Shown here: positions 1,963 to 60,329 of the stretch, in pieces | Layout of the letters: each line of letters opens with the position of its first letter | How positions within the stretch are numbered: position 1 is the stretch's first letter | Source of the DNA: Bdellovibrionales bacterium | GTDB taxonomy: Bacteria > Bdellovibrionota > UBA1018 > CAIMNF01 | Reading direction: 5' to 3' | Length of the DNA stretch: 60,329 nucleotides | NCBI GenBank assembly: GCA_040380025.1 | Contig: JBEIJY010000012.1 | Coordinates: 1 to 60,329, forward strand | Program-made: the position numbers and the translations under genes | The notes under the pieces: model-generated | What the model was told of the DNA's origin: nothing | What the model saw: the letters and a program-made list of their open reading frames with translations, nothing else | The model's database searches: none

Positions 1963-1967
1963 TCGCA

Positions 1968-2166
1968 CGACGCCCCCGGTTGATTGTGCTTGGTTATGAT
2001 GCGGGATCGGCAGAGGCGGGTGGGTTGATTCGGTTTTTGCCGACTCTCGCGAGCCAGGATGGCGAGAGCGAGGCCGGACGATCCGGCTCGGAGGCATAAA
2101 CGGAATCAATCCACCCGCCTCTGCCGATCCCGCATCATAACCAAGCACAATCAAAGTGTGCCGCAC
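1968..2166. repeat. Hairpin element copy E2 (core in reverse orientation), between convergent genes
   Basis: ~62-bp arms, starting TTGATTGTGC at 1980 and ending GCACAATCAA at 2154, with 3 mismatches; they enclose the conserved core. Confidence 0.95.
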
Positions 2167-2170
2167 GCGA

Positions 2171-12138: not shown

Positions 12139-15054
12139 TTATTTCGGCTCGCGAATCAACCGGAATCCGAGGGTCGGGCCCTTCCTCACGCTCCGGCCAT
12201 GGGCCGGATCCTGAATCCACTCCGAGACCCCGCGCCCCAGATCCTGCCAGATTTTTTCGAACAGATTCACCCGAACCGGAAGCCCCCCCTCCCAAGCCTG
12301 GATTGCCTTCTGCTCGGCATCGGTCGGAATCCGATAGCGATAGTGTCCGTCTTGTTCGTTCAACCGGCGCAAGAATTCCGTGATCTCGTGGAACATGACC
12401 GTTTCGACCGGACTCCACGGAGCCACGATCTGGGACGGGTTTGATCCCATGATCAACAACCACTGCAGCTGGGAAACGGGGGCGCCCTGGACCTGCATTG
12501 CTCCCTGCGGAGCCGGCACGAACTGAAAACTGTCGAAGAAAGTTTCATCGAACAGGGGTTCGCGGAGCCCTTGTTCGGTCGCAATCCGCTCGAAAAGCCG
12601 AAGATTGCTCGTGCGGGCCATCGGTTCCCAGATCCGGGAACGCTCGGATTTCGGCAGGGCTTCGAAGGCCCGTGCGAAACTCCCCCGGCGCGTGCCCATG
12701 AGACTTGCCAAAAACCAGGCTTTGCGTTCGAGATCGATGTCGGAACGGCCCATCCAGAGCCTCAATTCCTGATGGAATCGCGAGAGCTCCTGCCATCCGG
12801 CACGGGCCAGGATTTCGCGATAAGTCTGCAACGGAATCGATGCCCGGAACCCCGTGAACGATTCGCTCTCCTCAGCAATTCCGGCCGCGAGCCGCCGGGT
12901 TGTGCGGTCGGAGGACTCGAACAGGATTGCGAGCGATTGAACGAGTTCGGACTCGCTCGTTGCCCGGAACAGATGAAACCGGGACAAGAACCGGAGCACC
13001 GCGGGCTCCACCGCCCTGCCCTCGAAACTCTCGAGCCCGGCCCGGAGATCGGCGAGCTGATTCGTCCAGACCGCGAGTCGCAGATGTTCGACACTTTCGA
13101 AGATTTGCGCCTTGCTCTGGAGCGGTTCCCGAAGAACAGCGGTGATCACTGCGATGATTTCATCAAAAAATCCCTCATGAGCCATCCCCCAGCGTGTTCC
13201 GAAATATTCGCCGATCAGTTCCCGCAAGACCGCCGGCTTGTCACGAGCTCGGATCATGAGGTCGGACAGGATCTGACTCTCGAGCTCGAGCCTGACCCTG
13301 AATCTCGGGGTATCGAGCAGGTTTTGAATCAGGACCACCTGCTCCGTTTCGCTGAAATGATCCAGCAGCCCCGGAAGATTCATTTCTTCTGCCTGCCAGC
13401 TGGTGAGGAGAATCTGTTTCCGGACCCGGAAATCGACCGAACGGTCCGAGATCCATTCCTTCAGGGTTGCCGCGAAATCCCGCACTGATTCCGGATTCCC
13501 GAGAAGCCCCGTGCGCTCGAGGGCGGACATCACCAGGACATACTGAATCCGCTCATCGATCGACCCTGCCTTCAAGCGCGGCAGGGAACCAAGCAGATGC
13601 TCATGAGCGACTTCCCGTTTCGATACGGCGGATTGCAAGGGTCCCGGCTCCAGCCGCGCGCCCGAAATCTCCTTCATCGGCAAAACTTCCCGAAGCGGCA
13701 ACTGATCGAACGCCCGCGAATACGAATCCCCCACCCTCAGTTCCGGTACGCCCCGCCCGGGCTTGAAGTTGCGAATCCACGCATCCTGCCGGACCGGCAC
13801 ATCGCTGCGAATCCACGAGATGATCTGCTCCCGGTTCGAGATCGCATTGTCCCCCTCCCCGAGGTCCACGGGAAGCGCGAGCGTGTAGCCATCCTCGGCC
13901 ACCGAGCGCCGGATCCCCTCGATCAGGAGCGGAAGATCTTCTCTCGAAACATTCTGGATTTTATCGACATACGCGATCGGCTTCCGGCCCGAAGACAAAA
14001 CCCCCTCCCCGAGGACCACGGTGACCTGGCCCGAGGAATGTCCCGTTTCGTCCGTGATGGTGAAGTAATGAAAACTCGGATCAAGCCCGTAAAGTGGATA
14101 ATTCTCGGTCGAGCAATCATCGCCGAGACAACCCCGGAAGGGCGATTCCACCAGCGACAAATGACGAATCATTCTTTGCCGGATCACCGGCGCGACCGCG
14201 TTTTCGATCAGTTCGGATTCGAGGGCTTGCAGGGTTTTCTCGAGCTCCGCCGTGGAGTGGACTCCGGTGGGCTGGATGACTCCCAGGGATTTCATAAATC
14301 CCTCGAAGGATTCCTTGATTCCCACCGCTCTCAGAAACTCCTCGCGTTTTGCGAGAATCGTACGATACGCCCGCAAGCGCACAAGGCCATCGGCGTGTTC
14401 CAATTCCGCCTTGATTGCGGGATCGCGATAGCCGCTCGTGTGAACCAGATCAACCGCCGCCTGCCGGGCGACTCTTGGGTTTCGACCTGCATTCGCCGCA
14501 TCCAGAAGCCAGAAAAAAAGCTCCTCGGGATGGGCCGGAACGGGACCCGTCACGGCCAGCTTTTTCCAGAGCCCGGCATCCGCGCCGCGCTCAAACAAAC
14601 GCGTCTGGACTTTTCCCATGGCCGTCTTTTGCGCATCGAGGAACCCCTTCAGCGCCGGCGAAACCGGATGAACCCGCTCTTCGGTGAACAAAAGGAAGTT
14701 CCGGAGCGGCTTCTTTTCGAGATCGCGATGCCGGTTCAATGCCCGGACGATTGCGCGGTATGACTCCACGGGAACGACCGCTTGGGGATTTCCGAAGCGA
14801 AGAATCCGATAGAGCTCGAAGATCGCCCGCTGATCGGGCTTCGTGAAGTCGGGGACGAACCCCGAGCGGAAGAGATCGAGAAGCTCGTCGATCGTGGCAG
14901 GGTGGATCGGCCCCCGGTCTTGCCGAAGCAAGCGATCGCAGGGATTTTCGGAGCCCGGTGCTTGCGCCTGCGCCGCAGGGGGCAGGGCCAGGAGGAACAA
15001 GGCAAAAGCCAAAACGAGGCCAGCCGAATTCCGCATGGATCGCGAAGCGCTCAT
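12139..15054 (-). CDS. Large secreted protein, paralogue 3, with C-terminal FGE/SUMF1-like domain
   Basis: Signal peptide, NPCDRLL, RHLSLVESPFRGCLGDDCST, VSQLQWLLIMGSNPS...YRIPTDAEQ...VSEW...GFRL. Confidence 0.85.
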   Translation of the reverse strand: MSASRSMRNSAGLVLAFALFLLALPPAAQAQAPGSENPCDRLLRQDRGPIHPATIDELLDLFRSGFVPDFTKPDQRAIFELYRILRFGNPQAVVPVESYRAIVRALNRHRDLEKKPLRNFLLFTEERVHPVSPALKGFLDAQKTAMGKVQTRLFERGADAGLWKKLAVTGPVPAHPEELFFWLLDAANAGRNPRVARQAAVDLVHTSGYRDPAIKAELEHADGLVRLRAYRTILAKREEFLRAVGIKESFEGFMKSLGVIQPTGVHSTAELEKTLQALESELIENAVAPVIRQRMIRHLSLVESPFRGCLGDDCSTENYPLYGLDPSFHYFTITDETGHSSGQVTVVLGEGVLSSGRKPIAYVDKIQNVSREDLPLLIEGIRRSVAEDGYTLALPVDLGEGDNAISNREQIISWIRSDVPVRQDAWIRNFKPGRGVPELRVGDSYSRAFDQLPLREVLPMKEISGARLEPGPLQSAVSKREVAHEHLLGSLPRLKAGSIDERIQYVLVMSALERTGLLGNPESVRDFAATLKEWISDRSVDFRVRKQILLTSWQAEEMNLPGLLDHFSETEQVVLIQNLLDTPRFRVRLELESQILSDLMIRARDKPAVLRELIGEYFGTRWGMAHEGFFDEIIAVITAVLREPLQSKAQIFESVEHLRLAVWTNQLADLRAGLESFEGRAVEPAVLRFLSRFHLFRATSESELVQSLAILFESSDRTTRRLAAGIAEESESFTGFRASIPLQTYREILARAGWQELSRFHQELRLWMGRSDIDLERKAWFLASLMGTRRGSFARAFEALPKSERSRIWEPMARTSNLRLFERIATEQGLREPLFDETFFDSFQFVPAPQGAMQVQGAPVSQLQWLLIMGSNPSQIVAPWSPVETVMFHEITEFLRRLNEQDGHYRYRIPTDAEQKAIQAWEGGLPVRVNLFEKIWQDLGRGVSEWIQDPAHGRSVRKGPTLGFRLIREPK

Positions 15055-21522: not shown

Positions 21523-23247
21523 ATGAAACTCGGACCTTTGCTTTCTGTTTTTCTCCTTCCCGTTTTCGCCCTCGCACGGCCAATCGCAAATTCGCATCCG
21601 GAATCCCGAAGTCACATCATGGTGCTCTCGGGCGGGGTCTCCTCGTTCCAGAATCACTACAGTCAGTACCTGCAAACCAAGCTCCTGGCCGAGCACATGC
21701 GAAGCCGGCTCACTCCCGAACAGGTCGATTTGTTTTTTGCGGCAGGGAACAACGAAACCACGAAGGAGCTGTTCCCGGACGTGCATCGGTACATCCAAAG
21801 CTCGGGACTCAGCCGGGTGGATCAGCTTCTGCCGGGAATCATTTCAGGAAATCGTCCGGCGACGCCAACGGTCGTGAAGGAGTACTTTGATACAGAACTT
21901 CCCGCCAAGATCGATCCGTCCGGGACGTTGTTTCTGCTGGTCACCGATCATGGCGCCCCGAACCCCCGTCTCATCGATGCTACCGATCCCTATGCGGACA
22001 ACTGCATCGATCTTTGGAGCGGAAAGGCGACGACCAGGGACAACAGCCTTTATGAGGATCTGCGGAATTGCTTTTCGGTGAAAAAGCTTGAGCAGGGCCT
22101 GAAAAAATCAAGCCCCGGACGGACGGTCTTCGCCATGACCCAGTGCCATTCCGGCGGGTTCCACCGTTTGTCGGTCAAGAAAGACGGAAGCTCCCGTTGG
22201 ACCGCGAATCCCGCGATTTGCGGATTCACCGCATCCGACGAGAACACGGTTGCCTCGGGGTGCACCTCGGATGTGAATGACGAAAACTATCGCGGCTATG
22301 AGCGTTTTTTTGCGGAGGCGCTCTCGGGAACGGATGTGATCACCCGAAAGCCCAAAGGCACCCCCGCGAAGAGCCTGCAAGAGGCCCATTATTCTGCCGC
22401 CGAAATCGACACCACCCTCGACATCCCGCTCTCCACGAGCGAGTACTTTCTCAGGAACTGGGCCGAGGACATCGCGAGCTCCGGCTTTGAGCCAAGGACC
22501 CGGGTCTTGAACCGGAGACAGGCGAAGAAGTTGCTGACTCAGGTGATGCGGAACAAAATCCCGCGCGAAGAGATTCTGAGCAAAGCGGGCCCGTTCGAGA
22601 GCTGGTTTGCGGCGCGCTTTGCACATCTGGACCGGATGGGAGAAAACCTCGCCGCGAGTTCCGGAACCGTGGGTTCCTTATGGAACCGTCCGCCCAAGGA
22701 GATCCGCGATGCGTTCAAAGGATTCCGGAAATCCAGCCTCGAGTTGGAAACGAAAAAAAACGAGATCGAAGAACAGTATGCGGCGCTGATCGACGAGGCC
22801 ATGAAACCGGATTACCTCAATTCCTTGATCCTCAAGGAAAAAGACCCTGAGTATCTGAAAGATCTCGAGAACCGCTACCATTCCTTCCTCGTGAAAGATC
22901 CGGACCTGTATCAAACCAGACTCTTCAGTCTGACCCGTGCGGGCAATCCGGATGCGGTGGTGCTTGCGGAACAAGAACAGAAATTTTTAGAGATCTTCGC
23001 TGCAAACGCGGCCCGTCTGCCCGGTGGAAAGTATGAAAATTTGCCGGAACAGCTGGATTTTTTGAAAGAAACCCATGATGCGCTCGAAGACCGGTACTCC
23101 GAACTCTCCCGCGTGCAACACATCCTGACCCGGATCATGATCCAACGCGGAGTCATCGCCGCGGCCCATGTGCTGATCCAAATGAAGGACGAGCAGGCGC
23201 TTGCGGATTTGCAGGGCTTGCTCGAGTGCGAGGCGACTCCGTTTTAG
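21523..23247 (+). CDS. Secreted clan CD (caspase/C13-like) peptidase with C-terminal coiled coil, paralogue A
   Basis: Signal peptide; LLVTDHG (His) and MTQCHSGGF (Cys) dyad motifs. Confidence 0.72.
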   Translation: MKLGPLLSVFLLPVFALARPIANSHPESRSHIMVLSGGVSSFQNHYSQYLQTKLLAEHMRSRLTPEQVDLFFAAGNNETTKELFPDVHRYIQSSGLSRVDQLLPGIISGNRPATPTVVKEYFDTELPAKIDPSGTLFLLVTDHGAPNPRLIDATDPYADNCIDLWSGKATTRDNSLYEDLRNCFSVKKLEQGLKKSSPGRTVFAMTQCHSGGFHRLSVKKDGSSRWTANPAICGFTASDENTVASGCTSDVNDENYRGYERFFAEALSGTDVITRKPKGTPAKSLQEAHYSAAEIDTTLDIPLSTSEYFLRNWAEDIASSGFEPRTRVLNRRQAKKLLTQVMRNKIPREEILSKAGPFESWFAARFAHLDRMGENLAASSGTVGSLWNRPPKEIRDAFKGFRKSSLELETKKNEIEEQYAALIDEAMKPDYLNSLILKEKDPEYLKDLENRYHSFLVKDPDLYQTRLFSLTRAGNPDAVVLAEQEQKFLEIFAANAARLPGGKYENLPEQLDFLKETHDALEDRYSELSRVQHILTRIMIQRGVIAAAHVLIQMKDEQALADLQGLLECEATPF

Positions 23248-23250
23248 TGC

Positions 23251-23451
23251 GAACTGTGCCCTTTGAGTGTGCTCCGTTTCAGTCCAGGATGGACAGTGGG
23301 GGTTGGAATCGCTCGATTTTTACCTCCATGCCGCATCCTGCGGCCTCGCTTTCGCGCATCACGCGCTCGCGAGAGTCGGCAAAAACCGAACGATTCCAAC
23401 CCCCTCTGTCCATCCTGCTCCTTCATTGAGTACAACCAAAGGGAGCAGTTG
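23251..23451. repeat. Hairpin element copy E3 (201 bp)
   Basis: GAACTGTGCCCTTTGAGTGTGC ... TACAACCAAAGGGAGCAGTTG termini; ~40-bp paired arms; conserved core. Confidence 0.92.
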
Positions 23452-23532
23452 ACATTAAACACAGCGGAAGGGGCGGTTCGCGGGTCGGCCAGTGAATTGT
23501 GTTTCGCCTGAGCTCGTGTTACGCTACGCGTT

Positions 23533-25218
23533 ATGAAGAATCTTGTCGTTTTTGCGGGCATTTTCCTTCCTGCATTGGTTTCATACGCCGCCCCCGAAGA
23601 TCGCGCCATCGTGCTCTCGGGCGGGCTTGATCCGTTTGAAAACCGCAATTCGCTGTATCTGCAAACCCAGATGATTCTCGAGACCCTGCATGGCCGCATG
23701 AGCCCCGGGCAGATCGATCTTTTTTTCGGTGCCGGAAACTCCCCATCCACCCGAAACCTGATCCCCGACGTTCATCGGTTCAGCACCCGTTCGCGGCTGG
23801 ATTTCGTCGATGAGCTGGTCCCGGGAATCCTGCCCGACAATCGCGCGGCGGACTCTCCGACTCTCGAGGAGTATTTTCATTCCGAACTTCCGAACAAAAT
23901 GAATCCGAAGGGAAATCTCTTTTTTCTCGTCTCGGATCATGGAATGCCGAATCCGTTCCTGCGCGAAAACGAGGCGTCCTACTCGAACAACTGCATCGTG
24001 CTCTGGAACGGGATGCCCGGTGCCGATGCCCAACCTCGAAATCCTTGCCTATCGGTGACCGACCTGAAATCCCGTCTGGAACTTGCGAATGCGAAGCGAA
24101 CGGTGTTCGCAATGACCCAGTGTTATTCGGGCGGATTCCACGGCATGTCGGTCCGCCGGGACGAAGAGAACCATTGGACTGCAAACCCGAAGGTCTGCGG
24201 ATTCACCGCGACCACCGAGGATGAAGTCTCGAATGGATGCTCGATGGAGGTCGACTCGCTCAAATACATCGGGTACGAGCGACGCATCACCGAGGCGCTC
24301 ACCGGGTTCGACATGGCAACCGGAGCCGCACTGGCACCGGCTGCGCGCTCTCTTTTGAGTGCCCACCGCAGAGCGGCCGAAATCGACACGAATTACGATA
24401 TCCCGCTCACCACGAGCGACGTGTTCCTCCGGAACTGGGCGCAGGACATCGAAACCCGCGGATTCAAGCCCAGAGCGGGCCGGGGGGCGAAAGCGCGCAG
24501 GGATTTCATCGAGGTGGCCGAAGGGAGAATCTCTCACGAAAAAATCCTGGCCTCGTCGAAATGGCTCAGGGCCTGGTTTGAAGCGAAATTCAATCACCTC
24601 GCGCGCATGGCGGCCACGGTCGGCGAGACCTCCGAGACGGTGAAGCGTCTTTGGGATCAGCCCCTCTCGCTCCTCAGGAAGTCCATCGATGAAATGAATT
24701 CCGAAATTGCTTCGAAACAAAAGGAACTTGCGACGATTCAGGAACAAATTGATGTTCTGAACCAGGGAACACTCCATCCGGCCTACTTGGATCATCTGAA
24801 TGCAAGAGCGCTTGAGCCGACGTTTTTACAGAATCCCGCGAACATGTACCACTACCAAATCGCGCTCACGCCCGATCTTTATCAGTCCCAGATGTACATC
24901 CTGAGCAAAGCGCAATCGCCGCTCGCCCTGATCCTGGCCGAGCAAATGCGCTCCTACGGCGAAGTTTCCCGAGACATCCTCCTCGGGTTGCGGAATGGAA
25001 CCTATCGCGACGAGGTTGGACTCCGGGATGAGTTGTACAAAAAAGAAGAGTCCGTTCAGGCTGATATTTGGGAACTCCAACGCGAACGAAACCTCCTGCG
25101 CCGGTTTCAGATCCAGCGCGAGGCACTCGCCGCAGCCCATGCGATCGTCCGAATGAACGACAAAAAAGCCCTCTCCGATTTGCAGGGCTTGCTCGAGTGC
25201 GAGGCGACTCCGTTTTAG
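23533..25218 (+). CDS. Secreted clan CD (caspase/C13-like) peptidase with C-terminal coiled coil, paralogue B
   Basis: FLVSDHG and MTQCYSGGF; collinear with paralogue A; same C-terminus DLQGLLECEATPF. Confidence 0.72.
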   Translation: MKNLVVFAGIFLPALVSYAAPEDRAIVLSGGLDPFENRNSLYLQTQMILETLHGRMSPGQIDLFFGAGNSPSTRNLIPDVHRFSTRSRLDFVDELVPGILPDNRAADSPTLEEYFHSELPNKMNPKGNLFFLVSDHGMPNPFLRENEASYSNNCIVLWNGMPGADAQPRNPCLSVTDLKSRLELANAKRTVFAMTQCYSGGFHGMSVRRDEENHWTANPKVCGFTATTEDEVSNGCSMEVDSLKYIGYERRITEALTGFDMATGAALAPAARSLLSAHRRAAEIDTNYDIPLTTSDVFLRNWAQDIETRGFKPRAGRGAKARRDFIEVAEGRISHEKILASSKWLRAWFEAKFNHLARMAATVGETSETVKRLWDQPLSLLRKSIDEMNSEIASKQKELATIQEQIDVLNQGTLHPAYLDHLNARALEPTFLQNPANMYHYQIALTPDLYQSQMYILSKAQSPLALILAEQMRSYGEVSRDILLGLRNGTYRDEVGLRDELYKKEESVQADIWELQRERNLLRRFQIQREALAAAHAIVRMNDKKALSDLQGLLECEATPF

Positions 25219-31801: not shown

Positions 31802-31828
31802 GGAATCGAGAATACCGCGAAAGGATCC

Positions 31829-32029
31829 GAACGGATCCCTTTGATTGTTTTTTTTAAGGCGAGGAATGGGGAGAGGGTTCGGGAATGATTCGATTTTTGC
31901 CTCCGAGCCGCGTCCTGCGGCCTCGCTTTCGCGCATCACGCGCTCGCGAGAGTCGGCAAAAATCGAATCATTCCCGAACCCTCTCCCCATTCCTAGCCTT
32001 GCATCAAGCTCATTCAAAGAGTGTAGCCG
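31829..32029. repeat. Hairpin element copy E4 (~201 bp), between divergent genes
   Basis: 44-bp arms with 1 mismatch around the conserved core; CTTTGATTG ... CATTCAAAG termini. Confidence 0.92.
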
Positions 32030-32088
32030 GGAGACAATCCATTTTCGAAATCCCGATTCCTCATGCCGGATCGTGTTAGAGTCCCGAC

Positions 32089-39969: not shown

Positions 39970-40664
39970 ACCCACCCTATCGGATCTTGTTCGAGGATCA
40001 GCATCTTGCGGTCCTCTCGAAAGACCCGGGGCTTCTCTCGCAAGGAGATGCCTCCGGTGATCCCTCACTGGTCGATCTTTTGCGGACCCGCTTCGGGCGA
40101 CAATATGTCGGGCTCGTGCATCGTCTTGATCGCAACACGAGCGGCCTCATGGTCGTCGCGAAACGCTCGAAAAGCGCGGAGCGACTCACGAACCAACTGC
40201 AATCGGGCGAGCTCGAACGTCGCTACCATGCGATTCTTTTCGGCTCATTTGAATCGAATGAGCCCCGACGCTGGGAACACCTGATGCTGAAGAACCTGAA
40301 CACGAATGAGGTCCGGATCGTGACCCGTCCGGTCCCGGGCGCGAAGATCGCAATTCTCGAGATGACTCCGGTTCTCGGGTTCCCGCATCCTTCGACGGGG
40401 GATCTCCTGACTCTTGCCCGATTCACGCTCGAGACCGGGCGATCCCATCAGATCCGCGCCCAGGCGCTGGCGATGAATCATCCCCTGATCGGCGATCAAA
40501 AGTACGGCACGCCGAAAAGCGCGGGCCTCTTCCACCGTCCCGCCCTGCATTCGTGTTTTCTTTCGTTCTCGCATCCGATGTCGAAGGAACGACTCGAGTT
40601 CTCGGAGAATCTCGCCCCCGACATGGAAGAGCTTCTGCCCGCATCCCGAAGGAGCCTTGATTGA
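39948..40664 (+). CDS. RluA-family pseudouridine synthase
   Basis: HRLDRNTSG, TGRSHQIR, GDQKYG. Confidence 0.92.
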   Translation: MAHSDPLNPPYRILFEDQHLAVLSKDPGLLSQGDASGDPSLVDLLRTRFGRQYVGLVHRLDRNTSGLMVVAKRSKSAERLTNQLQSGELERRYHAILFGSFESNEPRRWEHLMLKNLNTNEVRIVTRPVPGAKIAILEMTPVLGFPHPSTGDLLTLARFTLETGRSHQIRAQALAMNHPLIGDQKYGTPKSAGLFHRPALHSCFLSFSHPMSKERLEFSENLAPDMEELLPASRRSLD

Positions 40665-42994
40665 AAGTCGTCCGCCTTGAATTTCGCGACGAGCGCACCC
40701 CGTATTCGCCGCTCTTCGAAGATGTGTATTTTTCGCCCGTCTCGGGGATCGAAGAATCGAATGAAGTTTACATCGAAGGAAGCGGCTTCGCCGAGTCGCT
40801 CGCCTCGGGGAAACCCCGCATCACGGTTGCGGAGATCGGGTTCGGTGTCGGGCTCAATTTTGTTCTGACCGTGCGCCACTTCCAAACTGCCCTCTTTGAT
40901 TGTGCAGGGTTAGGGAGTGCGACCGGCAGAAGGGATTGGAAGGATTCGGCTTTTGCCTCCGAGCCGGATCGTCCGGCCTCGCTCTCGCCGTCCTGGCTCG
41001 CGAGAGTCGGCAAAAACCGAATCCTTCCAATCCCTTCTGCCGGTCCCGTGCCATTACCCTGCACAATCAAAGAGGGCAGTTTGGGAGCCTCCACGAACAG
41101 TCCGGTTCTTGAGTATATCTCGTTCGAAAAGCATCCGGTCCATCGGGACGATCTCGTGCGCCTCTATTCGGCCTACCCGGAACTCGCGCGTTCATCGAGC
41201 GCGCTCTTGCAAGCCTATCCTTTGCTGGTTCCCGGGGTGCATTCCATCCGGCTCTTTGACGGCCGGGTGCGTCTCACGCTTGTCTTGGGTGATGCGGCTG
41301 CGATGCTCGGAAAAATGCAATTCCAGGCTGATCACTGGTACTGGGACGGATTCGCCCCGAGCCGGAATCCGGACGCGTTCTCGGACGAGATCTTCACCGA
41401 GGTTGCGCGCCATTCCAAAAAGGAGGCGCGGGGATCGAGCTTCACTTCTGCGGGCTGGGTCCGGCGGGCGCTCGAGTCGGCCGGATTCCAGGTCACCAAG
41501 GTTCCAGGCTACGGAAGAAAACGCGAGCGCCTGACGGGGGTTTTCGCGGCCGCCCCACGAACCTCCCCCAAACTGCCCCATTTGATTGTGCAGGGTAATG
41601 AAACGGGATCGGCCGAGAGCGGCGAAATGATTCCGCTTTTACCCTCGGGTCGGGGCTCTAGGACTCGCGCTCACCAATCGGGGTCGCGAGAATCCGAAAA
41701 ATCCGAATCCCTCCCATCCCTTCTGCCGATCGCGCCCCCTAACTCTGCACAATCAAATGGGGCAGTTTGGAGTTTGCAGGGACTGAGCCCTCCCCCGTGG
41801 TTCTCGCAAAAAAATCATTCGCGCCTGTCGCCCGACCGGAACCGTGTCGCCATCATCGGCGCGGGCCTCGCCGGCTCCGCGGTCGCACGATCCCTTGCCG
41901 GACGGGGTGCGGTGGTGCGCGTGTTCGATGCACATGGAATCGCCACCCGTGCTTCGGGAAATCCCGCAGGGCTGTTCAACACGCAAATCTCAAAACTTCC
42001 GAATCCGATCAGCCGGTTCGCACAGGCGTCGCTTGCGCATTTCTTGCGCGAGCTGGACTCGCTTCGCGTTCCGGCACGGCGCGGAATCCTGAGAAAGGAC
42101 TTCTCCGACCCGGCGCCCCTGATTGCTTCGGAGTATCCGGAGGATTTCTACGAGCTCCGCGAAAATGGCACGTTTTTCGGACTCGCGGGAATGCTGAATC
42201 CGGCAGAACTATGCCGCGCGCGGCTTGATCACCCGGGAATCTCCCTGCAAGCCGATGCGGTGATCCGGGTCGAACGAGAAGGCGAAGAATTCTCGCTCCA
42301 TCATCCGTCGGGAGCAGTTTCTCGCGGGTTCCATCACGTCGTGTACACCATGGGCGCGGATCCGCGCCTTCCGGGAAGCGCCCCTCTTCTGCATCCCCTT
42401 CTGGACGCCCTTCCAACGCGTCCGATTCGCGGACAGATCTTGCTATTGCGGCCCACGCCCGAATCAGCGCGCCTCCCGCATTGCCTGGTCGAAGAGGGGT
42501 ATCTGACGCCGCTCGCACCGGAAATCACGAAGAATGAGTTTCACCTTTTGGGCGCAACCTATCAGGCAAAGACGATTCTTCCGGATCAGGAAGAGATCGA
42601 CACGGCCCGACTGCTCGAAGACGCCGGGAAGTGGCCTGAGATCGGGAAGTTCACGCGCGATCATGTGGTCTCGACGCGGACAGGCTACCGGATGTCGACC
42701 CCCGACAAGCTCCCTTTGATCGGCCCCGTGGTGGATCCGGCATGGCTCAGGGACGCGTACCAGAGGACTCTGCGGGGCGCTCGGCAGATCGCGGGTCCCG
42801 ATCTGGAGCCCGAGCCGGGCGAGTGGATGCTCACGGGTCTTGGATCGCGGGGAATCACCTACTCGTCGTACGGCGCGGAGATTCTGGCCTCGATGATGAC
42901 AGGAGAGATGCCGCCGATCGAGCTGGATCTCCTTGAGCATGTTCATTCGGCGCGGTTTTTCGTGCGAAAACTTCGCGATGTTACGATAAAGTGA
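40661..42994 (+). CDS. mnmC: Bifunctional tRNA mnm5s2U biosynthesis protein MnmC, carrying two in-frame hairpin-element insertions
   Basis: FEDVYFS, EIGFGVGLNF, SFEKHP, DGFAPSRNP, IIGAGLAG, ASGNPAG, GLGSRG. Confidence 0.9.
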   Translation: MKVVRLEFRDERTPYSPLFEDVYFSPVSGIEESNEVYIEGSGFAESLASGKPRITVAEIGFGVGLNFVLTVRHFQTALFDCAGLGSATGRRDWKDSAFASEPDRPASLSPSWLARVGKNRILPIPSAGPVPLPCTIKEGSLGASTNSPVLEYISFEKHPVHRDDLVRLYSAYPELARSSSALLQAYPLLVPGVHSIRLFDGRVRLTLVLGDAAAMLGKMQFQADHWYWDGFAPSRNPDAFSDEIFTEVARHSKKEARGSSFTSAGWVRRALESAGFQVTKVPGYGRKRERLTGVFAAAPRTSPKLPHLIVQGNETGSAESGEMIPLLPSGRGSRTRAHQSGSRESEKSESLPSLLPIAPPNSAQSNGAVWSLQGLSPPPWFSQKNHSRLSPDRNRVAIIGAGLAGSAVARSLAGRGAVVRVFDAHGIATRASGNPAGLFNTQISKLPNPISRFAQASLAHFLRELDSLRVPARRGILRKDFSDPAPLIASEYPEDFYELRENGTFFGLAGMLNPAELCRARLDHPGISLQADAVIRVEREGEEFSLHHPSGAVSRGFHHVVYTMGADPRLPGSAPLLHPLLDALPTRPIRGQILLLRPTPESARLPHCLVEEGYLTPLAPEITKNEFHLLGATYQAKTILPDQEEIDTARLLEDAGKWPEIGKFTRDHVVSTRTGYRMSTPDKLPLIGPVVDPAWLRDAYQRTLRGARQIAGPDLEPEPGEWMLTGLGSRGITYSSYGAEILASMMTGEMPPIELDLLEHVHSARFFVRKLRDVTIK
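40884..41082. repeat. Hairpin element copy E5 (199 bp), in frame in mnmC
   Basis: Perfect TIR AAACTGCCCTCTTTGATTGTGCAGGGT / ACCCTGCACAATCAAAGAGGGCAGTTT; 37-bp inner arms; intact core. Confidence 0.97.
41570..41768. repeat. Hairpin element copy E6 (199 bp), in frame in the mnmC interdomain linker
   Basis: Perfect TIR AAACTGCCCCATTTGATTGTGCAG / CTGCACAATCAAATGGGGCAGTTT; degenerate arms and core. Confidence 0.93.
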
Positions 42995-43812
42995 CACCCA
43001 TGCGATCGATCAGCGCCCTCCTCATCGTGAAAAATGAAGCCTGCTATATCGAGCGCGCTCTTTTGTCGCTCCTTTGGTGCGATGAGATCGTGGTGGTCGA
43101 TGCGTTCAGCACGGATGAAACGCCGGCCATTTGTGGCGACCCCGCGAAACCCTGGGCGAAGAAAATCCGATTCCTACAAAAAGAGTGGATGGGATTCTCG
43201 GCCCAGCGGAATTTCGCGATCAGCCAGGCACGAAGCCCATGGGTTTTCTTTCTGGACGGAGATGAGGCCTGCTCGCCGGAGCTCGCAGAGCGCATCCAGT
43301 CGCTCTTGAAGAGTCCCGATCTGACTCCCGGACAGTACAAAGTCCGGCGGCAGGAGTTTTTTCTGAAGAAACCGATTCATCATGGAATCTGGAATCCGTC
43401 CTATCATGTGCGTTTGTTTTATCGGGATCATCTGCGCTTCACCGGCGAAGTCCACGAGGGGGTCGAGTGCGCGGACGAAGTGAGAAGGATCGACGAGCCG
43501 ATCATTCATGTGGAGGATCTGAGAATTGAGCGGATCCTGAACAAGATGAACCACTATACGACGATCCAGGCGGAAGCGGATTACAAAAGCGGCCTCAGGA
43601 CGAATCTGCTCCGGATCCTGCTCTCATTCCCGGCAATGTTTTATAAGAACTATGTGTATTACGGGGCCTGGAGGGACGGGACCGAGGGAGTGATGATCTC
43701 GGTGTTGGAGGGGGTCTCGAGAACCGTGCGCCATCTCAAGATCTGGCAACTCTCCCAAACTGCCCGCTTTGATTGTGCAAAATTAGACTCCAGTAAAAAA
43801 AATTCTCTCTAA
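42991..43812 (+). CDS. Glycosyltransferase family 2; last ~18 codons come from element E7
   Basis: LIVKNE, VVVDAFSTDET, FLDGDE, GEVHE. Confidence 0.9.
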   Translation: MTPMRSISALLIVKNEACYIERALLSLLWCDEIVVVDAFSTDETPAICGDPAKPWAKKIRFLQKEWMGFSAQRNFAISQARSPWVFFLDGDEACSPELAERIQSLLKSPDLTPGQYKVRRQEFFLKKPIHHGIWNPSYHVRLFYRDHLRFTGEVHEGVECADEVRRIDEPIIHVEDLRIERILNKMNHYTTIQAEADYKSGLRTNLLRILLSFPAMFYKNYVYYGAWRDGTEGVMISVLEGVSRTVRHLKIWQLSQTARFDCAKLDSSKKNSL

Positions 43813-43944
43813 ATTGCAAAAGCTTGCATCAAGACATTCTTAGGCCCTGGGCACGGCGATTTTCATCTGTCACTCGGTTACAGCGAATCCTCCGGCATAT
43901 GAATCCTGTTTTCGAAAACCATGCACAACCAAACAGGGCAGTTT
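43757..43944. repeat. TIR-bounded element E7 (188 bp, no core), upstream of the transposase
   Basis: CTCCCAAACTGCCCGCTTTGATTGTGCA ... TGCACAACCAAACAGGGCAGTTTG. Confidence 0.88.
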
Positions 43945-43977
43945 GCAGTTGGCACAGTCTCTGCCTTCTCCCCCCGC

Positions 43978-44901
43978 ATGCGAATCCAGTGTCCGAATCC
44001 ATTGTGCCCTAAAATCCATCCCTGTGCCCATATCCCCCGTCGCCGTGGTCCGAAACCCAGACCGATCGTCCGAAAAGGAAGCTACTACCGTTTCTCGGAC
44101 CGCAGGTTCATCGATCGCTATCAATGCCGATGTTGCGGAAAGAATTTTTCGAGCGCCACCCGATCTCCCGATTACCGAAAAAAGAAGCGGCACCTGAATT
44201 CCGAGATCTTCAATCTCTATTGCTCGGGAGTGAGCCAAAGAAGGATGGCGCATTTGCTCGAAACCACCGAAAGGACCATCGTCGACAAGTTCCGTCTGCT
44301 CGCGAAGAGAGCCAGGCAAGAACACGAGGAATGGCTCAAGGGCATCGAGCCGAATTCCATCAGGAGTGTCCAATTCGATGACCTCGAAACCTTCGAACAC
44401 ACGAAGTGCAAACCCCTGAGCGTGACCCTCATGGTGAAGAGCCAAACCCGTGAGATTCTCGGATTCCAAGTTTCGCAAATGCCGGCAAAGGGACCACTCT
44501 CGAAGATTTCTCTTCGAAAATACGGTCCGAGAAAAGACAAGCGGCATGAGGGATGGAACCGATTCTTCAAAAATCTCGAGCGGATTCTTCACCCCGAGGT
44601 CCTGATTGAATCAGACGAGAATCCCCATTACCCAAAGCATGTGAAACGGTATCTGCCCGAAGCCAGGCATACGCGGTATCAGGGAGCACGGGGAGCGATC
44701 ACGGGTCAGGGAGAGCTGAAGAAGATCGGCTTTGATCCGCTGTTCGCCCTGAATCACACCTGTGCGATGTTGCGGGCAAACATGAACCGCCTTTTTCGCA
44801 GGACGTGGTGCACGACGAAGACAGTCGAAGGGCTTGTGGATCATCTCTCGCTCTATGTGCGGTACCACAACACGCTAATCCTCCCAAACTGCCCGTCTTG
44901 A
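43978..44901 (+). mobile_element. IS1-family-like transposase (Zn ribbon, HTH, RNase H-like DD[E->N] domain)
   Basis: CPNPLC...RYQCRCCGKNF; GVSQRRMAHLLETTERTI helix-turn-helix; QFDDLE, ESDENPHY, LNHTCAMLRANMNRLFRRTWCTTK (compare IS1 InsB [24 protein letters not shown]). Confidence 0.75.
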
Positions 44902-45071
44902 TTGTGCATGAATAGAGACTTCCCATTTTTTTTCGCATGAAATTCCCAACAATTAACCCATTTTTCTGATTCGCCCGGATCGGCTCTGGAATCGCTCCCT
45001 GATTTCGGGCCAAATCAACGGGCGAAACGCCAATTCCGCCTAAAACCATGCACAATCAAAACGGGCAGTTT
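44886..45071. repeat. TIR-bounded element E8 (186 bp, no core), downstream of the transposase and supplying its stop codon
   Basis: CTCCCAAACTGCCCGTCTTGATTGTGCATG ... CATGCACAATCAAAACGGGCAGTTT. Confidence 0.9.
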
Positions 45072-45180
45072 CCGATTGTTAAATTTTCTTGACATTTATA
45101 CCCCCCTCCCCCAAAACTTGCCCCATCACGCTTTTGGTCCACTGACGGCACCAAGATCGATCACGGAGGAAGAGAGACCC

Positions 45181-46179
45181 ATGAGAACCATTTTCATCGT
45201 CCTGGTGGTTCTGATTTTGATCGGGGGGGGAGTCTGGTTGCTTAGGCCCGCGCAGATGGGGCCGGGAGTGCAGGTTCCCGCAGCAAAAACAACGGCGGTG
45301 GAAGACTCCACAATCGTAGATGCTTCGCAGCCAAACCCGGGTGATGACAATCCCGTACAAAATCCGAACCTCCCTACTCCCACCGCCGAGAGCCAAGCAT
45401 CGAAGCCCCGCGTCGGCGTCTGCCACCCGCAAACTGCCTCAGATGATTGTGCACCATTAACGACCGGAATGACGCCAACACCTCGGAATCATTCTATTTC
45501 TAATGCAAAGCCCGGACGTTCGGAATTAGCCTCCCCATCCGGGCTCGCAAACGAGGACAAAACCCGAATCATTCCGGCTCTGTCTGTTCATGGTCTTCCT
45601 AAACCAGGAACAATCAAAGAAGGCAGTTTGTGCTGGGTACGCGAGTACCGCCACAAGGCAAACTCCCGCGCCCTTCCCATCGACGAGTTCCTCGAGCACC
45701 TGAACGCCTTCCCTCTCGAGCGCCCCGACATCCAGCCAAAGAGCATTTGTGTGAAGGTGGACGGCACTCCCGTCGACTTTGTGGTTTCGAGCCGGGGGCA
45801 AAAAAAAGAGATCGTCATCGGACCCGTGGTGGGACCAGAGAGCATCATCCGCGTCTCGTACTGCACCGGAAGCGCGCGGTGCGGAGAAGCCTGCGCGAAA
45901 CCCGCACGACGGTTCATGGATGAGCTGACCGGCGATGTTCTCACACCACCACACGGCCCGACAGGCCGTGCAGACTCACCTGCCCCGACAGGCCGTGCGG
46001 CCGCAAACAGCCCCAGAACCCCGGCTCTCTCCCACCACGAAGCCGACACGGCCGAGCTCCGCGCGGGCCTGAACGAGCTGAAGGCCCTCGCCCGAACCAA
46101 TGATTCCCTCACCGATCACGCAATTCTGCGGGATTGGAACACCCTCGTCGCGCGCGAGCGCACCTGCAAGGAGAACTGA
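45181..46179 (+). CDS. Membrane-anchored hypothetical protein at the head of the gliding-type operon, with in-frame element E9
   Basis: ATG at 45181 (MRTIFIVLVVLILIGGG TM anchor); Cys-containing C-terminal domain. Confidence 0.75.
   Translation: MRTIFIVLVVLILIGGGVWLLRPAQMGPGVQVPAAKTTAVEDSTIVDASQPNPGDDNPVQNPNLPTPTAESQASKPRVGVCHPQTASDDCAPLTTGMTPTPRNHSISNAKPGRSELASPSGLANEDKTRIIPALSVHGLPKPGTIKEGSLCWVREYRHKANSRALPIDEFLEHLNAFPLERPDIQPKSICVKVDGTPVDFVVSSRGQKKEIVIGPVVGPESIIRVSYCTGSARCGEACAKPARRFMDELTGDVLTPPHGPTGRADSPAPTGRAAANSPRTPALSHHEADTAELRAGLNELKALARTNDSLTDHAILRDWNTLVARERTCKEN
45431..45629. repeat. Hairpin element copy E9 (199 bp, degenerate), in frame
   Basis: AAACTGCCTCAGATGATTGTGC ... AACAATCAAAGAAGGCAGTTTG; translates QTA...TIKEGSL, like E5. 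Confidence 0.85.
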
Positions 46180-54047: not shown

Positions 54048-54724
54048 AAAACCCAATGCTTCTGCTCATTCTGTTGGCGCTCGGAAGCCCGCTGCACGCA
54101 TTTGCCCAAGGGGAGGCCGTGGATGTCTCGAAAATCACCGAAAAATACTGGGCGGGCGGAAAGGAATCCGAGCTCGGGGTGGTCCAGAACCGGCAGTACT
54201 CGAACGAGGGCCATGTCGAAGTCGATTTGCTGGGCGGAAGCGTCTCGAGCGATCCGTTTTTTTCGACCACGAGCTACGGGGGCTCGATCGGCTATCACTT
54301 CAGCAACGATCTGAGCCTTCATGCGATTGCGTGGAAGGCGAGCACCCGCGATTCGGACGCCTACGAAAAACTTCGAAGCGAGGCCCCCGCGGCCGATCTG
54401 TACCGGAATGCGCCGAAGGCCTTTTATGGATTGCAGGCAAATGCGAATCTTCTGTACGGAAAAGCCTCTCTCTTCGGGAAGCTCATCATTTACCTCGATT
54501 TGTTCTTACTGGGCGGCGCCGGCGTGACCGATACCGAGACCGGAAAAAACCTCACGCCGTTCCTCGGGATCGGGCAAAAGATCCGGCTGAACCGGTTCGC
54601 ACTTTTGCACCTTGATTACCGGATCATGCGATATTCCGAGACGGTCGGGAACTCGATCGGGGATCTTCGGGAGCGGACGAACACGAGCGATGCGGTCACA
54701 CTGGGGCTTGGGTTCCAGTTTTGA
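54044..54724 (+). CDS. Outer membrane beta-barrel protein (GltA/B/H-like)
   Basis: VVQNRQY, DPFF, LLYGKASL, terminal Phe. Confidence 0.8.
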   Translation: MKNPMLLLILLALGSPLHAFAQGEAVDVSKITEKYWAGGKESELGVVQNRQYSNEGHVEVDLLGGSVSSDPFFSTTSYGGSIGYHFSNDLSLHAIAWKASTRDSDAYEKLRSEAPAADLYRNAPKAFYGLQANANLLYGKASLFGKLIIYLDLFLLGGAGVTDTETGKNLTPFLGIGQKIRLNRFALLHLDYRIMRYSETVGNSIGDLRERTNTSDAVTLGLGFQF

Positions 54725-54922
54725 GCGGTACCCCTTCAGTTTGCCTGAGTTGACCTTCCGTCCGGAAAAGAGGTGGGAATAAAAAAGGGTTTCGCCTCCG
54801 AGCCGCGTCGTGCGGCCTCGCTTTCGCGCGTCACGCGCTCGCGAGAGTCGGCAAACCCTTTTTTATTCCCGCCTCTTTTCCGGCCGGTGTTTCAGTTCAG
54901 GCACACTCAAGGGGGACAGATC
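54723..54922. repeat. Hairpin element copy E10 (~200 bp), filling the gap between convergent genes
   Basis: Arms CCGGAAAAGAGGTGGGAATAAAAAAGGGTTT / AAACCCTTTTTTATTCCCGCCTCTTTTCCGG; core present; GCACACTCAAGGGGG terminus. Confidence 0.92.
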
Positions 54923-55652
54923 ACCCTGTCTTCAGCTTCAAGCGATAGCCCTCGCCGTAGACGGTCTTGAGTTCGGCTTGAAAAGCCGAGATCTTTTTTC
55001 GAAGCGAGGTTAGGTGCGCATCGATGAGGCGGTCGTTCTTGGACTCATCCCGCCACACAGCCTCCATGATCGCCCTTCGCGAGACGACGGCTCCGAGGTT
55101 CCTTAAGAACAGCTCCAAAATCCCGTACTCCACCGGGCCAAGGTCCAAAAGCTTTCCGTCCAGGAACACCTCCTGGCTTCTCAGGTCCATCACCAGATTC
55201 GCGATCTCGATCCGGTCCGAGGGCGGGCGGCGAAAATCCTCGGCCCGCGCAAGCTTCGAGTGAATGCGCGCAATGAGCTCCTCCACCTCGAAGGGTTTTG
55301 AAATGTAATCATCCGCACCGAAATCGAATGCGCGAATCCGTTGCCGCGAGGTATTGGCCGCAGTCAGCATCAAAATCGGAATCGAGCGCGTCGAGGGATT
55401 CTCGCGGATCTTCCGCACCGCCGAGATCCCGTCGAGTTCGGGCATCATCACGTCCATCAGGATCACATCGGGCCGGACCGACCGCGAGGCCTGCACGGCC
55501 TCGGCGCCGTTCGAGGCGAGCTCGACCGTGAACTGCTCCGACAAAAACTCCTTCAAAAGAAGCCGGATCTGCGGCTCATCGTCGACCACAAGGATCGTGC
55601 GCTTTTTTTCGGGGTTGCTTCGGGGGGAGCTCTCAGGAATGTCCTTCGCCAT
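54921..55652 (-). CDS. OmpR/PhoB-family response regulator
   Basis: [25 protein letters not shown]...TVYGEGY. Confidence 0.95.
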
Positions 55653-59298: not shown

Positions 59299-60329
59299 TC
59301 AATAATCTCTTCTTACTTTGAAATTCTTATCCCCGCGATGCGCAGTCTCGGGGCCCGGGATTCTCGGACCCTGAACTTTCGACGGTTTCGCCGGCGCGGC
59401 TGCTGGTGATGGATTCATCGCTGTCTGTAAGGATTGGTTCACGATTTGATTCATTTGTTCACCAACATTTTGATTTTGCTCGGGACGAGGCGCCAGCCTG
59501 GTTACCCCAGGTATGAACGATTGCTTAGTCTTAACTACGGCGGGAGCTGCCGGAGCAGTCGCCTTTGGAGCCGCCGGTGTTTTGGCCGGAGCACTGGCGA
59601 CAGGTTTTGACTTGTCGGCGGGGTATGCATCCTTCAGCGGATCAACAGCTTTACCAAAAACATTGGTGAACTGATTGTTCCTTTGGTTTTGGTTCTCGCG
59701 ATACTGCGCGCTGTAAGAGGCTTGCGGTATCGTAAAAACGGTAGTCCTCGGGACACCATTCGAAGGGGACGGATTTCCCTAAGTCGCCGGAACAGAAGCC
59801 GCCTGATTCATTTGACCCGCCGAAGTGTGAGCCGTCAAAGCTGGAGCCACCGCCGGAACTTGAGCCGCCGGAACTTGAGCCACCGCCGGAACTTCAGCCG
59901 CCGGAGCGGCTGCCGCCGGTTGCTGCGTGGCATTTGATTGATCAAGCGGCAAGTGTTTCTCGAATGCTGCCTTGATCTCCTCGCCTGCCGCGCTCACCGC
60001 GGTTTTGGTTGCCTCGGTGTCGTCCTCGCCCTTCAAAAGAATGGTCCACTCGAGGGCGCTTTGCTGTTTGTTGTACTCGACATTATTGAAGCCGCTTTCA
60101 TCCACTATGACGTTTACTTTTTCTGGGCCCACAGCTTGATCGAGCTTTTCTTTGATCTGTTTTGCGACTGACATAGCACTATTTCGATTTTGCATTTTAT
60201 ACCGAAATTTCGCGTCAATCTTTGTAACGTATTGTTTATGTCTCTTAATCACTTCGATGACCTTATCAAGGTTATCAGGAGTGCCGTCACTAATATTCCC
60301 TCCATTTGTCTTAATCCGACAAACTCCAG
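59299..60329 (-). pseudogene. Partial Ala/Pro/Gln-rich ORF entering from the window end, interrupted by an in-frame TAG at 59779-59781
   Basis: Frame is open from beyond 60329 to the TAG, then open for 159 more codons of similar composition to TGA at 59299-59301. Confidence 0.5.

Follow-up and report, generated by a model that had tools for sequence, protein, structure and literature searches.

The stretch of DNA analysed here (the window, 60,329 nt) is contig C12 of a 53-contig, 2.35-Mb, 58% G+C assembly of a Bdellovibrionales bacterium, referred to below as G000. Positions 40950–41016, in which an earlier note had recognized a conserved branched core, form the apex of a nearly fully palindromic MITE (a miniature inverted-repeat transposable element) of ∼201 bp. 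This copy lies in frame within the mnmC gene, which also reads through a second copy, and a unit with an IS1-like transposase gene and the same termini follows in the window. On balance we consider it probable that the core is a Y-shaped module (the Y-tip), selected for its structure, that hitch-hikes on a MITE mobilised in trans by the IS1-like transposase.

Anatomy of the element

The sequence quoted in the earlier note for 40950–41016 is exact. The core is flanked by two arms of 79 nt each (40879–40957 and 41009–41087), which are 90% complementary to each other. The termini of this copy were located at 40885 and 41081, and the flanking positions −1/−2 and +1/+2 are conserved as CA and TG. 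All well-kept copies share one plan: a terminus of 21–23 nt (CAAACTGCCCCCTTTGATTGTGC), an arm of ∼45 nt, the core, the complementary arm and the inverted terminus. In G000, the spacing between paired termini is 195–200 nt in 30 out of 35 cases; with the conserved outer CA and TG added, the modal element is 201 nt long. Open frames run across individual copies in zero to three of the six reading frames and are incidental. The 201-nt element is short and non-coding and has no transposase of its own, as a MITE should be.

The element is also present in many dispersed copies. A blastn search with the core gave 93 matches spread over most contigs of the 2.35-Mb genome, with identities of 82–98% between the matched copies, and the 21-nt terminus motif has 137 matches in the genome. 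In the best DNA sequencing run the depth over the core is 2716, as compared with ∼31 in the flanks, a ratio that corresponds to ∼88 copies.

Fold of the core

Folded as single-stranded DNA, the core makes two hairpins closed by TTTTGCC/GGCAAAA, with an energy of −20 kcal/mol and a z-score of −4.15 (none of 200 shuffled sequences equalled it); the complementary strand folds equally well (z = −4.53). The compensatory changes reported earlier are real. The six copies of the window split 3:3, with those at 1–55, 2034–2100 and 40950 combining CCGG..CCGG with GCC..GGC and those at 23317, 31894 and 54789 combining CCGC..GCGG with GCGC..GCGC. In a first alignment of 65 copies (45 from G000 and 20 from three other metagenome-assembled genomes, MAGs) the tip pair of hairpin 1 is C–G in 41 copies and G–C in 21, and hairpin 2 has one pair that occurs in three types and another that occurs in two. 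Two subfamilies, the number proposed in the earlier note, are too few, since the combinations of CCGC with GCC and of CCGC with GGC..GCC also occur.

The fold as originally drawn has 91.4% of its alignment cells paired. Its covariation score was reached by none of 500 shuffles, and the same is true of the revised register given below; registers slid along the sequence collapse to 30–50% paired, as compared with 91–92%. The part of the original fold that did not stand is the register of two helices. Uncompensated breaks affect the GAG/CTC base of hairpin 1 in 6–7 of 64 copies, and two pairs of the CTCTCGC/GCGAGAG register of hairpin 2 in 5 and 9 of the 64. RNAalifold gives hairpin 1 as GCCGSN-TCN-NSCGGC and hairpin 2 as CTCGC/GCGAG with an internal loop TYTC/TC and a 3-bp tip GCC/GGC; the CTCGC/GCGAG helix is then 99.4% paired, and the variable columns land in unpaired places. 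Distant copies carry further versions of both hairpins: TCTTGC/GCAAGA, TCCAGC/GCTGGA, TTGTTC/GAACAA and CCGGC/GCCGG in the helix of hairpin 2, and GGAC/GTCC, GCGC/GCGC, AAAC/GTTT, GCAC/GTGC and GAC/GTC in hairpin 1. These compensated helix variants settle the CTCGC/GCGAG register. The flagged copy alone permits the 7-bp helix CTCTCGC/GCGAGAG, but the family does not.

A wide alignment holds 70 copies from G000, six other genomes and three MAGs that possibly overlap with those genomes. Covariation persists in this larger set: 95.1% of the cells are paired, against 64.3% in shuffled controls, in an alignment that was fitted to the model and so favours it, and 25 of the 27 pairs of this model-fitted alignment change on both sides. 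Three or four pair types are seen per stem pair while the loops stay fixed. The fixed parts are the hairpin loops (ATCCT/GTCCT/ATCGT and CATCCTG), the junction strands (TCC-NN, and AGTC as J3 in 59 of 67 copies) and the internal loop (TNTC/TC). On the written strand both hairpin loops conform to R-TC-N-Y, and the complementary strand accordingly has AGGAY.

Stems that vary around fixed loops indicate that something recognizes the core as a folded single strand, and since helices of 3–6 bp could not be kept by arm-to-arm recombination, the pairing itself must be selected. We regard it as settled that the Y-shaped fold of the core is under selection; the earlier idea of a branched three-way-junction module under structural selection, in which stems vary and both loops and junction strands are conserved, is borne out. 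In all probability short of certainty, the core acts as a folded strand of RNA or DNA, single-stranded in either case, to which a protein would bind.

Termini and the IS1-like transposase

The termini tie the MITE to an insertion sequence (IS). Canonical IS copies of ∼1.0 kb in genomes G002, G003 and G039 have the MITE terminus motif at both ends, in the same orientation, and three partial IS copies in G000 end at the motif, with flanks that diverge beyond it. Species variants of the terminus are shared as well: the variant ...CCCCCTTTGATTGTGC of G000 is common to IS and MITE, and so is the variant ...GGCCTCTTTGA(A/G)TGGGC of G002 and G015, where the termini are 198 nt apart. The termini of the MITE thus match those of an autonomous IS of the same or related genomes. 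We regard the setting of the element, a MITE of an IS1-like IS, as settled.

The transposase open reading frame (ORF) in the window lies between two units of ∼185 nt, which have the same termini as the MITE and no Y-tip. The Y-tip is also absent from the canonical IS copies and from terminus-bounded units beside IS copies in G004. The last codons of the transposase gene run into the right unit. A transposase copy with 61% identity at C5:99903–101243 of G000 is also placed between two complete terminus-to-terminus units, both with the Y-tip; the units that flank the window and C5 transposase copies are about 185–200 nt each.

The transposase is Cys-rich at its N-terminus and matches the NCBIfam IS1 model NF033558 over residues 65–186, which is partial coverage, with 41.4 bits (E-value 1.4e-10), below the cut-off of 100 bits. 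Its only Pfam match is a weak one to Mutator, below the cut-off (E-value 0.0048), and no IS1 domain was found by Pfam. Homologues of ∼300 aa number ∼4973, many of them on contigs of 1.0–1.4 kb.

Distribution of the tip across the order

A covariance model of the core (R1) was searched against 116 genomes of the order. The tip was found in 15 of them, belonging to two families (10 of 16 congeners and 4 of 75 genomes of the second family), and the transposase in 42; 12 genomes have both and 30 have the transposase only. Five genomes have at least 18 tips (G000, G002, G013, G015 and G044), and all five carry the transposase. The genomes are kin, hence no statistical test was applied to these co-occurrence counts.

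The tip is seated on other stems too. All of the 20 tips fetched from G044 stand on arms of ∼110 nt whose termini and conserved blocks differ from those of the MITE, and none of them is near a tRNA gene. Genomes G003, G004 and G014 have one to three tips each, located 39–44 nt behind tRNA-Ser(tga) or tRNA-Pro(cgg) at four loci (L070 and L071 with tRNA-Ser, L074 and L084 with tRNA-Pro), with different species having them at this same pair of tRNA genes. In these tRNA-linked tips one arm repeats the 3′ end of the tRNA in inverted form, and the strand co-directional with the tRNA is the written one, not the complement. No such linkage was seen in G000, where none of 89 cores is within 400 nt of a tRNA gene. 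We regard it as settled that the tip is independent of this MITE; it is also older and more widespread than the MITE. Searches with a pattern of hairpin 2 gave no match in viral contigs and four in metagenome contigs.

Evolution of the arms and inversion of the tip

The two arms of a copy resemble each other (left arm versus reverse complement of the right arm, median identity 0.80) more than left arms resemble one another between copies (0.50; n = 49). Arm changes were counted in 20 pairs of sister copies that are 80–99.5% alike. These pairs contain 213 one-sided changes, 46 compensated changes and 82 arm mismatches shared in the same sense; 11 of the compensated changes come from one pair, C20:976 and C20:34823, in which both copies are 97% palindromic. 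The shared mismatches, up to 13 in one pair, indicate that both arms are copied as they stand. The 46 compensated changes compare with ∼13 expected by a rough estimate, which points to arm-to-arm conversion, selection, or both. We also considered that the palindrome is rebuilt from one arm at each copying, and rejected this because of the same-sense mismatches that sisters share.

The copy at C42:4409–4607 agrees better with its three sisters (C7:20910–21108, C2:111165–111363 and C39:16141–16339) when its arms are swapped (0.91–0.92) than when they are not (0.84–0.86). Asymmetries common to it and the sisters number five to seven in the swapped and one in the unswapped state, and pairwise alignment agrees. 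At least one inversion of the tip against its arms has thus taken place, such as inverted-arm recombination would produce. Among 30 close pairs this is the one flipped copy. Weaker hints of a second flip were seen in a comparison of the C18 and C46 copies with those at C42:6690 and C9:86995.

Inversion of the core between the arms, which had been suggested from the window alone, is thus seen as one evolutionary case; the contigs of four DNA runs contain no inversion joint, and no empty site either. Two joints in these contigs link the two mnmC copies and look like repeat mis-joins. The copy for which an inverted core had been claimed (E2 in Table 1) is explained by the orientation of the whole element: relative to its nearest relative, two arm asymmetries are in the same sense and none is swapped.

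Copies in the genome and their gene context

Gene settings of the copies were derived from our own gene calls (1952 genes, 89% coverage). The placeable copies of G000 lie in convergent gaps (18), tandem gaps (20), divergent gaps (2) and inside genes (6), and 38 of the 46 are downstream of genes. The core is frequently found 66–81 nt from the end of the adjoining gene, so the element abuts the stop codon or provides it. In tandem gaps the core is sense in 9 cases and antisense in 11, inside genes sense in 4 and antisense in 2, and genome-wide 44 cores are on the plus and 39 on the minus strand. In G000 no bias was detected relative to the sign of GC skew (29 versus 32), the local gene-strand majority or the neighbouring genes. 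Close to contig ends (<300 nt) are 35 of 83 cores; the element breaks assemblies.

The product of mnmC has the domains Methyltransf_30 and DAO, and its two stop-free in-frame copies correspond to ∼67 and ∼70 codons. Both insertions are absent from 16 of 16 congeners, whose frames are 628–683 aa long, except for one cut by a contig end. Another decayed copy (45432–45628) is in frame within a 367-aa ORF (45076–46179) without Pfam domains, and a Pfam scan of a 778-aa ORF on contig C9 that carries a copy gave no match. The glycosyltransferase ORF at 42991–43812 has its C-terminus and stop codon supplied by the left terminus of the unit at 43758.

Copies of altered shape were also observed. Those at C40:12665–12788 and C40:2420–2540 have ∼57 nt extra inside hairpin 2, including a further ATCCT, and retain the CTCGC/GCGAG stem. 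At C6:24090–24156 a deletion between two TCCTG loop motifs shortens the core and leaves one hairpin.

Table 1. Features of the flagged element, its relatives in the window and copies of G000 with flanking direct repeats. Positions are those of the window unless a contig is named
Feature	Positions	Strand	Remarks
Complete MITE copy, 201 nt, CA...TG	40883–41083		In frame in mnmC; recognized by inverted arms, termini and absence from congeners
Left terminal inverted repeat (CAAACTGCCCTCTTTGATTGTGC)	40883–40905	+	21-nt terminus motif, which also ends the IS1-like units
Left variable arm	40906–40949		Pairs with 41017–41060
Core, three-way junction	40950–41016		P1 = 40951–40957 with 41009–41015
Junction strands of core	40958–40962; 41005–41008		TCCGA; AGTC
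Hairpin 1 (GCCGGA tcg TCCGGC)	40963–40977		All six pairs covary in the wide alignment
Hairpin 2	40978–41004		CTCGC 40978–40982 pairs with GCGAG 41000–41004
Hairpin 2, internal loop	40983–40986; 40998–40999		TCTC; TC
Hairpin 2, tip	40987–40989; 40995–40997		GCC with GGC; loop GTCCT 40990–40994
Right variable arm	41017–41060		Pairs with 40906–40949
Right terminal inverted repeat	41061–41083	−	
mnmC ORF, 777 aa	40661–42994	+	Reads through two copies
Second mnmC copy	41569–41769		In frame; decayed core 41631–41707, 26.8 bits to the model
IS1-like unit	43756–45072	+	Transposase ORF 43921–44901 between units 43758–43943 and 44887–45070
Copy cut by contig start	1–125		Core 1–55; right terminus ∼100–120
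Copy E2 of the earlier note	1967–2167		Core 2034–2100, on minus strand
CCGC/GCGC-type copy	23250–23452		Junction variant CCATG
Copy with worn termini	31828–32030		Ends approximate
Copy filling a convergent intergenic gap	54715–54927		Ends approximate
Copies with 10–13-nt flanking direct repeats (G000)	C25:18122–18318; C39:16141–16339; C7:20910–21108; C26:15345–15541		

Other repeats of the window are of a different kind. Direct repeats with 63–79% identity at 7416–7611, 10490–10685 and 13988–14183 (spacing ∼3.1–3.5 kb) and at 22194–22496 and 24171–24473 (∼2.0 kb) look like tandem paralogous genes, unrelated to the element. Close to the end of the window, at 59817–59882, there are two tandem units of 33 nt that are 73% alike.

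Comparison with known systems

Bacterial MITEs that derive from insertion sequences include Correia/NEMIS, ERIC and Nezha. Like these, the element is short, non-coding, dispersed in many copies and hairpin-foldable, lies mostly 3′ of genes and has IS-matched termini. It differs in that its apex is a covarying three-way junction, better conserved than the arms and common to non-MITE hairpins in other genera. Further differences are that its length is held to ±2 nt, that duplications are seldom visible and that IS copies of G000 have whole MITE-like units as ends.

The partner resembles IS1 in the Cys-rich N-terminus and the NF033558 match of its transposase, in the length of the IS (∼1.0 kb) and in its inverted repeats of ∼21 nt. 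With 41 bits against a cut-off of 100 and no Pfam IS1 domain, it is unlike IS1 in that the family model does not accept it; moreover, the target duplications of IS1 are 8–9 nt, whereas those visible here are 10–13 nt.

Parvovirus terminal hairpins are T- or Y-shaped inverted terminal repeats that occur in flip and flop forms. The element is like them in that two small hairpins cap a long palindromic stem, and in that its asymmetric tip is found in both senses within one subfamily. Unlike them, it is chromosomal and interspersed, no HUH nickase is linked to it, and its arm mismatches pass unchanged between sisters, which means that copying does not each time rebuild the stem from a single arm. 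The palindromic elements of Rickettsia survive as in-frame insertions in protein genes, as do the two copies in mnmC; unlike those elements, most copies here are intergenic and an autonomous IS partner can be identified.

The TwoAYGGAY RNA motif (Rfam RF01731; Weinberg 2010, PMC2864571) is described in a 2026 preprint as two hairpins on a common basal stem that occur in multiple copies, with a median of 11–23 per Pseudomonas genome and up to 202; some copies are inside coding sequences and some variants have extra AYGGAY hairpins (10.64898/2026.09.22.753630). The same preprint proposes the loops as Csr/Rsm sites and calls the means of spread of the motif, and the link between mobility and regulation, unresolved. 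In the tip, likewise, two hairpins follow one another on a shared basal stem that can be long, with similar GGA-containing loops, some copies in coding regions and extra-hairpin variants (those on C40). It differs in its loops, which on the complementary strand are AGGAY or ACGAY (UGA in one subtype), one base shorter than AYGGAY, so that AYGGAY is not found in both loops. It also differs in being framed by transposase-matched terminal repeats and in its host, a Bdellovibrio-like order and not Pseudomonadota or Bacillota. By analogy, we suggest that the tip works like the TwoAYGGAY motif and would not file it as a member of that family; the whole element we would file as a MITE. A csrA gene is present in G000 (C36:14459–14614; 92.9 bits). 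Literature searches on MITEs of Bdellovibrio and on MITEs with a three-way junction turned up no description of the element; supplements of the TwoAYGGAY papers may hold more.

Favoured reading and alternatives

We propose that an IS1-like DDE transposase encoded elsewhere in the genome would mobilise the MITE in trans via the terminal inverted repeats of 21–23 bp. The apex would be a separate module, selected for its fold and seated also on unrelated long stems in other genomes. A protein, in all likelihood dimeric, would read the folded single strand by way of its pair of similar loops. A TwoAYGGAY-like module may thus have hitch-hiked on the MITE and been amplified by it.

Several observations weigh against this proposal. 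The random orientation of the core argues against a strand-specific role in cis. A search among RNA sequencing runs for positions 40500–42000 yielded none that contains them. Three genomes (G008, G009 and G012) have the tip with no transposase detected. GGA (TCC on the written strand) is present in both loops in 18 of 45 copies of G000, in one loop in 19 and in neither in 8. Rfam had nothing in the window at gathering score, and on the element at E ≤ 10 gave no TwoAYGGAY, only noise of microRNA-precursor hairpins. The TwoAYGGAY model itself scored at best 34.2 bits against a threshold of 43, at 1 of 15 loci, a metagenome copy. Among isolated arm mismatches of all copies, as read on the written strand, 60 are G:T, 95 A:C and 160 other, and those of P1 (11 versus 32) also lean to wobble on the complementary strand; counted by cluster, the lean is 12 versus 5 (p = 0.14), a weak pointer to the active strand. 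Wobble pairs are not enriched over other mismatches, so the long arms are without sign of RNA selection. Finally, target-site duplications are to be expected if a DDE transposase moved the MITE, yet direct repeats of 10–11 nt that could be such duplications flank just 3 of 35 tested copies (null expectation 0 at lengths of at least 9 nt), and the other 32 show no flanking direct repeat. A further direct repeat of 13 nt was found by eye in one copy, and 10–13 nt is long for a DDE-type duplication. Inverted repeats in the flanks are not enriched (3 of 35, versus a null of 2.7%).

The proposal leaves a choice between RNA and DNA as the folded strand. It is possible, and we hold it tentatively, that Csr/Rsm or a similar dimer binds transcripts of the complementary strand, in which a long basal stem presents two AGGAY hairpin loops. 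The ∼90 copies would then act as a sponge or put 3′ untranslated regions (3′ UTRs) under CsrA control, and the MITE would carry a TwoAYGGAY-like RNA. On the complementary strand the loops read CAGGAUG and CAGGACG, the unpaired segments are purine-rich, and the TwoAYGGAY model aligns over its full length (the 34.2-bit alignment), with CA-GGAUG and CA-GGAC on the AYGGAY loops, each a base short. The preprint cited above (10.64898/2026.09.22.753630) puts forward TwoAYGGAY as a Csr/Rsm target, and csrA is present in G000. The position of 38 of the 46 placeable copies 3′ of genes makes read-through likely, and the mismatches of both arms and P1 lean to wobble on this strand. Set against these points are the copies in which GGA is missing from one or both loops, the loops that are one base short, the lack of an orientation bias to transcription and a wobble trend that by cluster is not significant. 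In addition, the tRNA-linked copies have the written strand co-directional with the tRNA, and the strict length of 197–199 nt would be left unexplained.

Rather doubtful, in our estimate, is a role confined to DNA, in which the tip folds in single-stranded or cruciform DNA at the centre of the palindrome and brings the termini together for the transposase by bending or nucleating the element, either by itself or with the help of a host protein; the tip would then aid, in cis, the spread of the MITE. Such a role would fit the terminus spacing of 195–200 nt in 30 of 35 cases, and of 198 nt in another species, which is kept despite ∼50% arm divergence. It would also fit the equal folding of both strands as DNA and an orientation that is neutral to both transcription and replication. 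High copy number is found only for tip-bearing MITEs (the five genomes named above), and the one flip of the tip together with the 46 compensated arm changes suggests that the arms often exchange sequence while folded or paired. On the other side, the canonical IS and the units of the window and G004 have these termini and no tip, which makes it probable that the transposase can dispense with it. Single-copy hairpins behind tRNA genes have the tip as well, as do three genomes without the transposase, and we know of no DDE transposase that needs a hairpin tip.

It is quite improbable that the tip is a tiny single-strand mobile element of the IS200/IS605 or REP-RAYT kind, which either inserts into the loops of hairpins or makes inverted copies of the sequence beside it, with the MITE as just one landing site. 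The same tip on unrelated stems and the arm that is an inverted copy of a tRNA 3′ end speak for this, and the two adjacent hairpins recall the left and right end hairpins of IS200/IS605. The Y1 transposase PF01797 is unrelated to the tip, being present in 79 of 116 genomes and not found in the tip-bearing G003, G004 and G014, and cores have no replication strand bias (29 versus 32). The 82 same-sense mismatches shared by sisters indicate that arms and tip are copied together as duplex DNA, and no MITE subfamily with the same arms and an empty apex was found. More improbable still is a core without function, a spacer that looks conserved through youth or gene conversion and in which the small hairpins are incidental: cores of G000 are 82–98% alike, decayed cores persist (in the second mnmC copy and at 45432–45628) and the deletion between two TCCTG loops at C6:24090 exists, but the core is retained across two families of the order while arms turn over, the arms of the same copies are just ∼50% alike between subfamilies, and stems covary with three or four pair types around fixed loops.

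Significance

The present analysis contributes the transposase link, the corrected hairpin register, the flip of the tip and the sub-threshold TwoAYGGAY alignment. The structure-selected module on a transposase-driven MITE may even be a portable protein-binding module of the TwoAYGGAY type, such that ∼90 sites bound by a global regulator, be it Csr/Rsm or another dimer, are scattered by transposition to 3′ UTRs and also into reading frames; we put this forward as a speculation that is more likely wrong than right. If true, it would connect how TwoAYGGAY-type repeats move with what they regulate, a link that has been missing; these repeats are widespread, highly variable in copy number and unexplained in function and spread. 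With a look-alike module inside an element that has transposase-matched ends, the questions of mobility and regulation can be taken to the bench; the parts needed are defined, namely a transposase gene, a csrA gene and the 201-nt element. The element is, besides, a clean natural case of MITE arms that turn over while selection holds a small fold, and of a conserved enzyme, MnmC, that tolerates in-frame palindromic insertions.

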